From the NCBI RefSeq assembly GCF_003334315.1, contig NZ_QOWR01000007.1: 64,000 nucleotides of DNA; one strand, given 5' to 3'. A program made the position numbers and the translations under genes. Under the pieces are notes generated by a model that made no database searches, was not told the DNA's origin, and saw only the letters and a program-made list of their open reading frames with translations. Origin of the DNA: Escherichia coli. GTDB taxonomy: Bacteria > Pseudomonadota > Gammaproteobacteria > Enterobacterales > Enterobacteriaceae. Positions 63,415-64,000 of this stretch are shown here, piece after piece. How positions within the stretch are numbered: the stretch's first letter is position 1; every line of letters starts with the position of its first letter.

Positions 63415-64000
63415 TTAGCTTGTCGCTAACTGTACTTGCGGTTCTTCATCTTTAACTTTGATAAGCGTCCACAGCGCAATGGCGCCAATAATGTCAAAGA
63501 AAGCCAGGGCAATAAAGAACGGCGCGAAGCCGATAATGTGAACGAATGCCCCGATAAACAGGTTGAAAATCAACTGACCGCTCCACGCACAGGCTCCTGC
63601 CATACCCACTGCGGTAGCTACTTCGTCTTTTTTGAACAGATCGCCACCCAGAGTTGCTGCTACAGTAGAAAGACATTGATGCGAGAACGCGCCAATACTA
63701 ATCAGTAATACGGCAATGTAGGGATTTTCGACAATACTCACCAGGCCAATCGTCATCATAATGACGGCTGCAATAGTGAAGGTAATTCTTCGTGAGTTAA
63801 TTAAACTCACGCCGCGATCGTGGAAGAACTTCGCGACAAAACCACTGGCTAAACAGCCGAGATCGCCCAGCAGGAAAGGCAGCCAGACGAACATGGCAAT
63901 TTCTTTCAGGCTAAAATGCAGCGTTTCGACGAAGAAAATCGGCACCCAGAAGTTAATGGTTCCCCATGCCGGGTCTGCGAGAAAACGCGCGATGCCAATC
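63415..64000 (-). CDS. MFS-type transporter, C-terminal portion only (gene continues beyond the right window edge)
   Basis: Open frame on the minus strand from stop at 63415 to the window end; translation ...FVWLPFLLGDLGCLASGFVAKFFHDRGVSLINSRRITFTIAAVIMMTIGLVSIVENPYIAVLLISIGAFSHQC... shows the alternating hydrophobic helices and GxxxG-rich segments of the second half of a major-facilitator transporter; identity not recognised. Confidence 0.55.
   Translation of the reverse strand, partial: IGIARFLADPAWGTINFWVPIFFVETLHFSLKEIAMFVWLPFLLGDLGCLASGFVAKFFHDRGVSLINSRRITFTIAAVIMMTIGLVSIVENPYIAVLLISIGAFSHQCLSTVAATLGGDLFKKDEVATAVGMAGACAWSGQLIFNLFIGAFVHIIGFAPFFIALAFFDIIGAIALWTLIKVKDEEPQVQLATS

Follow-up and report, generated by a model that had tools for sequence, protein, structure and literature searches.

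An accessory operon ending beside rplI in Escherichia coli encodes a probable ExuT-like importer with a likely hexuronate-type substrate

The subject of this analysis is a transporter gene at the right edge of a 64,000-nucleotide stretch of Escherichia coli DNA (NCBI RefSeq assembly GCF_003334315.1, contig NZ_QOWR01000007.1; hereafter the window), which begins just downstream of the ribosomal protein gene rplI and runs off the end of the sequence. We consider it likely that the window ends in the last gene of an accessory six-gene operon, and that this gene encodes an importer of the major facilitator superfamily (MFS) resembling the hexuronate transporter ExuT and acting on a hexuronate-type substrate. 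The right edge marks the end of K-12-like gene order, and the content found there is a common accessory allele, neither an artefact nor a rarity: a catabolic operon that is conserved and under selection, and that K-12 and O157 lack, is present in over half of the E. coli genomes sequenced. Being missing from those two strains, the operon has escaped the classical genetics done on them. What goes beyond ordinary strain variation at this locus is the uncharacterised operon itself, an exchange of its MFS gene for a transporter of the tripartite ATP-independent periplasmic (TRAP) type, and the probable place of K-12 as the degenerate state.

An earlier reading made from the letters of the window alone (the sequence-only reading) had seen here the 3' half of an MFS-type gene leaving the window on the minus strand, and this description was accurate, the fragment amounting to 46% of the protein. 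The minus-strand frame is open from position 64000 to a TAA codon at 63415-63417 and comprises 194 complete codons, ending in EEPQVQLATS according to the list of open reading frames (ORFs). It starts 101 bp past the rplI stop (63313), beyond the rplI terminator hairpin. Over its 585 nt in the window it matches without a difference the 3' end of a PK6 gene of 1278 bp annotated 'MFS transporter', and the gene extends past the window edge to about position 64692. Among the E. coli alleles compared, together with that of Escherichia whittamii, the ratio of nonsynonymous to synonymous substitution (dN/dS) was 0.01-0.05, so that this is a gene under purifying selection and a chance ORF is excluded. 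The transporter is an already annotated, ordinary accessory gene for an uncharacterised organic-anion symporter of the ExuT/DgoT type.

The family assignment was borne out by the full-length PK6 protein, whose gene contains the 585 nt of the window and which matches PF07690 (MFS_1) at 3.7e-55 over residues 15-327 and at 1.4e-07 over residues 301-418. The top NCBIfam model, by a wide margin, was TIGR00893, the D-galactonate-transporter subfamily (315.1 bits, positions 2-398 of 399). A Kyte-Doolittle scan alone marked hydrophobic 19-residue stretches at 11-29, 64-94, 142-186, 264-287, 302-346 and 369-414, the last three of which lie within the window fragment (residues 232-425); the pattern is compatible with twelve helices but does not separate them. 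The closest solved structure was DgoT, the galactonate:H+ symporter (PDB 6E9N), with an E value of 2e-40 over residues 9-410; the alignment of the window fragment reaches DgoT residues up to 437. DgoT residues D46, R47 and E133 align with D25, R26 and E112 of the full-length transporter, all three in the half of the gene outside the window. The published account assigns D46 and E133 of DgoT to proton coupling and R47 to substrate coupling or gating (PMC11649914). DgoT, a 12-helix protein that serves as the bacterial SLC17 model, thus shares its coupling residues with the transporter, but it is distant in sequence and is encoded in the dgo operon for galactonate.

K-12 ExuT (b3093) is considerably closer in sequence: a full-length alignment with only 4 gaps gives 48% identity (67% similarity; E 1e-151), and the window fragment alone is 45% identical to ExuT residues 232-423 (E 1e-60). 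Both proteins are of the MFS anion:cation-symporter type and similar in length (432 amino acids for the hexuronate:H+ symporter ExuT, 425 for the transporter). An identity of 48% nevertheless places them at the level of paralogues, below that of orthologues. ExuT is encoded at another locus, whereas the transporter gene has no adjoining uxaCA or exuR and is accessory, being present in 31% of genomes. At the position of DgoT D46-R47 the transporter carries Asp-Arg (D25-R26) and ExuT carries Thr-Arg.

The gene contexts of closer relatives point to the substrate. A homologue search covering 5.8 billion proteins recovered proteins 80-85% identical to the transporter from Edwardsiella, Providencia, Yersinia rohdei, Pantoea ananatis, Orbus and Gilliamella, with those of Providencia, Gilliamella, Y. 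rohdei and Edwardsiella at 83-85%; some database sources name these relatives ExuT or 'hexuronate transporter-like'. The Gilliamella apis gene is the last of a uxuB-uxaC-MFS series and lies beside uxuA and a GntR gene, while that of Providencia rettgeri diverges from uxuA-uxuB-uxaC, followed by a GntR/FCD regulator, which is the layout of exuT and exuR. In Y. rohdei a GntR/FCD regulator is next to the gene, and the contexts in P. ananatis and Edwardsiella are less informative. The P. rettgeri and G. apis proteins are the nearest kin outside Escherichia and likely belong to one orthologous group with the transporter, although they are linked to uxaC, uxuB, uxuA and GntR and the E. coli gene to five other enzymes and a TetR-family regulator. 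Linkage to uxaC, uxuA/B or exuR was accordingly found only in these 83-85% relatives of Gilliamella and Providencia, and not in E. coli. By these relatives, the transporter belongs to a tightly conserved group, distinct from ExuT, that acts as the importer of glucuronate clusters in several genera, and its substrate is best inferred to be a hexuronate-like sugar acid.

The sequence-only reading had also suggested that the flank 3' of rplI is a variable junction. We found at least five configurations across 5426 complete E. coli genomes, which are sequenced isolates in a database, so that the counts are not population frequencies: the MFS gene directly after rplI, a helix-turn-helix (HTH) and HipA-family module and then the MFS gene, yjfZ and then the MFS gene, a TRAP transporter, and loss of the operon by deletion with yjfZ present. 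The MFS gene was present at any junction in 1690 genomes, and the whole MFS operon, at a coverage of at least 80%, in 1661. The exact junction of the window, comprising the terminator, a 45-bp spacer and the MFS gene, occurred in 360 genomes; the HTH and HipA-family module separated rplI from the MFS gene in 1041 (among them Nissle 1917, UTI89, ST131 and ATCC 25922), and yjfZ did so in about 290, a figure obtained by difference (for example GMF054). A three-gene TRAP transporter replaced the MFS gene in 1445 genomes that retain the same five enzymes and TetR gene. yjfZ was present in 2539 genomes, most of them K-12-like, with yjfZ, a relic of about 100 bp of the first operon gene, and a TetR gene without its first 247 nt. 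Derivatives of these configurations carrying the insertion sequence IS1 also occur, with IS1-associated deletions in E308 and TUM1881. The MFS gene is not present in K-12 or O157, and the operon is carried by BL21-derived strains. The content at the window edge is therefore accessory (1690 of 5426 genomes), as had been proposed, but the suggestion that it might be strain-specific did not hold for so common an allele.

The exchange of MFS for TRAP provides a second line of evidence on the substrate. In strain WCHEC020032 the TRAP system occupies positions 892-3736 of locus L006. The flavoproteins encoded upstream of the two transporter types agree at about 99% of positions to around residue 612, but identity drops to about 55% in the final 78 residues, placing the exchange boundary within the last ~230 bp of the flavoprotein gene. 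This pattern indicates that the exchanged segment consisted of the 3' end of the flavoprotein gene together with the transporter, and hence that the donors already had a flavoprotein gene beside either transporter type. The top solved relatives of the TRAP binding protein were 4OVR, 4X8R, 4N8Y, 4N15, 4N91 and 4MIJ/4MHF (E 1e-60 to 1e-71). Several of these are described as hexuronate binders, 4X8R and 4N91 for glucuronate, 4N8Y for galacturonate and 4MHF for both compounds, and 4N15 has served as the modelling template for the glucuronate binder STM3169 (PMC11668362, PMC7660916). Hexuronate TRAP systems (Salmonella STM3169-3171, Bamb_6123, Apre_1383 and Bpro_3107) are thus the nearest solved kin of the replacing transporter, which takes the operon position of the MFS gene and presumably does the same job, although these systems are tripartite, depend on a binding protein, are unrelated in sequence to the MFS transporter and lie outside the window. 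Two unrelated uptake machines at one operon position therefore both indicate hexuronate-like sugar acids. The exchange is a clean natural case in which the uptake module of an operon was swapped and its enzymes were kept, and agreement of both modules on one substrate class narrows the search for the substrate. Some genomes also hold, elsewhere, a second and distantly related TRAP binding-protein gene (79% nucleotide identity over 150 nt).

Beyond the window edge, six co-oriented genes occur in the order short-chain dehydrogenase/reductase (SDR), TIM-barrel protein, enoyl-CoA hydratase, CoA-transferase, flavoprotein and MFS transporter, the transporter being last; we saw this order in PK6, ATCC 25922, CT30, GMF054 and E. 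whittamii. The SDR dehydrogenase matches NCBIfam PRK12745 above its cut-off. The TIM-barrel protein has a xylose-isomerase fold, with 3QC0 and 3JU2 (E about 4e-85) and also 7VPF as its nearest PDB entries; it gave no NCBIfam match, and its PDB relatives are unannotated or generically named. The enoyl-CoA hydratase is of the crotonase type, and the CoA-transferase is a fused family-I enzyme of the YdiF/Pct kind (YdiF 1.8e-113). The flavoprotein, of 690 amino acids with an FAD_binding_2 domain, gave only remote matches, to SdhA, FrdA and NadB, in the sequence search. Its AlphaFold model (mean pLDDT 82) led Foldseek to the same proteins in the PDB (E about 1e-26, TM 0.6-0.75), a result that gives a fold class and no specific function. 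The source-database names of all six proteins, and of the TetR regulator, are generic.

A 215-amino-acid TetR/AcrR gene lies divergent from the SDR end of the operon and overlaps the end of ytfB. The 212-bp intergenic region between the SDR and TetR genes holds a perfect palindrome with 8-bp arms, ATCAACCA-N6-TGGTTGAT (L005 16604-16625), a candidate TetR operator. It surfaced through the terminator scan alone, an inverted-repeat search of the same region having returned none.

The flavoprotein allowed us to look at the enzyme core in other organisms. In a survey of one genome for each of 100,044 bacterial and archaeal species we found relatives at 324 loci, the best 80 of which encode proteins of 53-92% identity. 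In Yersinia, Pseudescherichia and Mangrovibacter a TetR gene stands beside genes for an SDR, a Gfo/Idh/MocA oxidoreductase, a TIM-barrel protein, an MFS transporter and the flavoprotein. In alpha-proteobacteria the flavoprotein is found with an ATP-binding cassette (ABC) sugar transporter, two GMC oxidoreductases, LacI, Gfo/Idh/MocA and a PfkB kinase. The CoA-transferase and hydratase accompany it at 13 of 77 loci. These contexts fit sugar, sugar-acid or hydroaromatic-acid metabolism without defining a pathway. A further sign of CoA chemistry tied to the operon is a gene for a 159-amino-acid (R)-specific enoyl-CoA hydratase of the MaoC/hotdog type, located between the MFS gene and rplI in Escherichia sp. 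MOD1-EC7003 (L012 5373-5852) and Entomohabitans teleogrylli (L014 11657-12136).

From these observations we propose a working model. In intact strains the transporter would be co-transcribed with the five enzymes from a promoter next to the divergent TetR-family repressor gene, and the operon transcript would stop at the hairpin shared with the convergent rplI. The transporter would act as a proton-coupled importer of an organic anion, most likely D-glucuronate or a close cyclic polyhydroxy-carboxylate. After import, the SDR and the TIM-barrel protein would oxidise the substrate and isomerise or dehydrate it; CoA transfer would activate either the resulting compound or a product of its cleavage, on which the hydratase and the flavoprotein would then act. 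Of these steps, uptake is the one with real comparative support. It is possible, though less likely than not, that the operon as a whole constitutes a CoA-dependent way of handling a hexuronate-like sugar acid that has not been described before, organized around the highly conserved SdhA/FrdA-fold flavoprotein and present in ~58% of complete genomes.

Several observations weigh against a hexuronate importer serving this operon. The TIGR00893 score falls under the curated cut-off of 395 bits, and no hexuronate pathway so far known looks like the set of five enzymes. With ExuT, UxaC and UxuAB at hand in E. coli, a second, CoA-linked glucuronate importer is left unexplained. Elsewhere the flavoprotein gene lies beside ABC sugar transporters or, in Raoultella, Brenneria and Pantoea, beside ShiA-like, PcaK-like or FucP-like MFS genes, and this variety of transporter neighbours indicates that the enzyme core is not bound to hexuronates. 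A simple scan gave no sigma-70-like promoter in the SDR/TetR intergenic region, and literature searches aimed at the locus, the operon and the junction found no description of them, with only a TetR survey and a yjfZ marker study touching on the locus. Finally, IS1 splits the MFS gene from the operon in three genomes, where the gene may be poorly expressed.

This last point bears on the source strain. Over the shared stretch, identity to the window is 99.92% for E308 and PK6 as compared with 97.86% for K-12, and among the genomes 100% identical to window positions 39001-64000 we examined three, AHM9C68I, 2017.13.01CC and RCAD0514 (L096-L098). In all three, the flavoprotein gene carries an IS1 insertion at its 3' end, which precedes the MFS start by about 140 bp and would fall at about 64830 in window coordinates, to the right of the edge; the flavoprotein gene is shortened to 2052 bp (2073 bp otherwise). 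If the source strain belongs to this group, its MFS gene is cut off from the operon promoter. The gene in the source strain could then be a stranded relic, intact but severed by IS1 and heading for loss. E308, which is identical to the window across the last 701 bases, already shows such loss, through an IS1-associated deletion that starts within the 5' part of the MFS gene and ends inside that for the TIM-barrel protein. However, the window stops short of the IS1 site, the MFS frame remains intact in the three IS1 genomes (1278 bp, WP_001033615.1), transcription out of IS1 is possible, and PK6, 99.9% identical over the last 9.7 kb of the window, has no IS1. We therefore regard a stranded relic as the less probable state of the gene, though one to be taken seriously.

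Alternatively, the substrate may be a different cyclic polyhydroxy-carboxylate: the transporter would import, for example, quinate, shikimate or a derivative, the operon would form a CoA-dependent and possibly reductive route for such hydroaromatic acids, and the ExuT-like and hexuronate-like TRAP carriers would have been recruited through similarity in substrate shape. In Raoultella a ShiA-like MFS gene, of the shikimate transporter family, precedes the flavoprotein gene and a flavodoxin gene follows it (L015 10134-10637). In Brenneria a gene for a PcaK-like aromatic-acid symporter follows SDR, TIM-barrel and flavoprotein genes (L017 10248-11645). Such neighbours offer a hint that some versions of the system work reductively and on hydroaromatic acids. 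The CoA-transferase of the operon is YdiF-like, and the pairing of a xylose-isomerase-fold TIM barrel with an SDR is typical of cyclitol or dehydroshikimate dehydration. On the other side, the transporter is 83-85% identical to proteins encoded within uxaC/uxuAB clusters, a level at which transporter specificity is usually conserved, and the nearest solved kin of the TRAP binding protein include several described hexuronate binders. A hydroaromatic substrate for the E. coli transporter is for us unlikely, and a hexuronate-type substrate remains the preferred reading.

We next consider which state of the junction is older. In agreement with the sequence-only reading, this position is taken in K-12 by yjfZ (DUF2686), after which comes ytfA, a truncated TetR pseudogene. 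The two arrangements occupy the same interval between rplI and ytfB and share, besides the terminator of rplI, the TetR gene over its 3' two-thirds, but K-12 has no transporter and no enzymes, and its TetR pseudogene lacks the DNA-binding N-terminus. Homology to K-12 ends at window position 63366 and restarts inside the TetR gene. Outside E. coli, the operon sits in the ytfB-rplI interval in E. whittamii, MOD1-EC7003 and Entomohabitans: E. whittamii has the order ytfB, TetR, SDR, TIM-barrel, enoyl-CoA hydratase, CoA-transferase, flavoprotein, MFS and rplI, with an identical 45-bp spacer, and in the other two the flavoprotein and MFS genes adjoin rplI with the MaoC-like hydratase gene between. 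K-12 itself retains relics collinear with the operon, namely the TetR gene without its first 247 nt and the SDR fragment of ~100 bp. This synteny and these relics lead us to regard the operon as the probable ancestral state in Escherichia, from which the arrangement of K-12 would derive through insertion of yjfZ and subsequent deletion. This reverses the polarity implied by the sequence-only reading, which had taken the K-12 map as its reference. The end of the operon nearest rplI would be a recombination hotspot, at which the importer has been exchanged for a hexuronate-type TRAP system or cassettes such as yjfZ and the HTH and HipA module have been inserted, and in K-12 a deletion would have removed all that lay between yjfZ and a point inside the TetR gene, the MFS gene included.

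The K-12 SDR relic (L002 13044-13145) is 80-85% identical to every intact allele and nearest to that of E. whittamii. The adjoining part of the K-12 TetR gene is 99% identical, unlike the SDR relic, and the apparent ages of the two differ.

The opposite history, in which the MFS gene and its operon arrived recently as an island after rplI and the K-12 arrangement is the older, draws on the absence of the MFS gene from K-12 and O157, on its G+C content (47%, as against 52% for the window and flank) and on a phylogeny that departs from the species tree, the protein being 83-85% identical to those of Providencia and Gilliamella and 77% identical to the MFS proteins of MOD1-EC7003 and Entomohabitans. 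AT-richer cassettes are found generally in the slot next to rplI, with G+C contents of 42% for yjfZ, 42.5% for the HTH and HipA module, 44% for TRAP and 47% for MFS. The operon as a whole stands at 50% and its enzyme genes at a genome-like 50-55%, the operon also fills the ytfB-rplI interval of other Escherichia species and of Entomohabitans, and K-12 keeps the 5'-truncated TetR gene and the SDR relic in operon order. Moreover, in the E. coli records examined the annotation shows neither an integrase nor a tRNA gene at the junction, which does not have the look of an island. A recent arrival is on these grounds quite improbable. An integrase-borne island, considered as a separate candidate, was rejected because the operon is syntenic in other species, K-12 has relics of it and its composition speaks against an island.

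A TetR-regulated MFS pump for drugs or metabolites has very little to recommend it: a TetR-family regulator near an MFS gene is a classic efflux layout and there are weak NCBIfam matches to the EmrB, Bcr and Cmx models, but those matches are partial (the N-terminal half, 30-57 bits, compared with 315 bits over the full galactonate subfamily model), the proton-coupling and substrate residues of DgoT are conserved alongside 48% identity to ExuT, and five catabolic enzyme genes separate the regulator from the transporter. A drug efflux pump was rejected on family, conserved residues and context.

The features at the junction are listed in Table 1. The window closes with rpsF-priB-rpsR-rplI on the plus strand (61874-63313), and the hairpin that follows folds at -21.8 kcal/mol on the plus strand and -20.9 on the minus strand (z -4.6 and -4.1), with none of 200 shuffled sequences as stable. 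It is conserved in all 5426 complete genomes. A simple terminator scan did not call this hairpin because the T-run was taken into the stem. Since it is equally stable on both strands, it could halt a transcript coming from the right, and the rplI terminator is plausibly bidirectional, ending the convergent MFS transcript as well. The breakpoint was placed by pairwise BLAST of the window tail against loci L002-L005, with the sequences compared side by side. Inside the spacer lies an imperfect hairpin (63373-63402, minus strand), which may be what is left of a terminator belonging to the MFS gene itself; the 61-nt stretch holding it folds weakly (-13.7 kcal/mol, z -2.55). A promoter scan of the junction found none.

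Table 1. Features at the right edge of the window, in window coordinates
Feature	Position	Strand	Remarks
rplI (50S ribosomal protein L9); core genes end here and the variable junction follows	62864..63313	+	ORF list; annotation of relatives
GC-rich hairpin, 12-bp stem, A-run before and T-run after	63335..63361		rplI intrinsic terminator
Left breakpoint	63366..63367	.	63366 is the last base common with K-12-, TRAP- and yjfZ-type genomes
45-bp spacer unique to the 'direct' rplI-MFS junction	63367..63411	.	identical in PK6, E308 and E. whittamii
3' 46% of the gene for the 425-aa ExuT-like MFS transporter	63415..64000	-	residues 232-425 and stop

Some of the alternative alleles at this locus carry a frameshift or further insertions. 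The HTH-domain and HipA-family toxin genes between rplI and the MFS gene lie at L003 7098-8861 in ATCC 25922, where hipA has a frameshift, and at L004 5769-8866 in CT30, where IS2 interrupts it. In strain EC14, of the yjfZ type (L009 7084-9232), a fragment of an IS200/IS605 tnpA and a TnpB gene sit inside the truncated TetR pseudogene; TnpB belongs to an RNA-guided endonuclease family. The TetR gene has also been noted in a survey of that family, in which ytfA was variable in E. coli and present in E. albertii and E. fergusonii (PMC6790063).

The K-12 yjfZ gene, at L002 12085-12879, is the allele alternative to the window from 63367 onward. It has been proposed as an E. coli/Shigella-wide 'conserved signature' target for quantitative PCR, and one strain in the accompanying table gave a very low yjfZ signal (PMC11057252). 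With yjfZ in only 2539 of the 5426 genomes, assays based on this gene will miss many strains.

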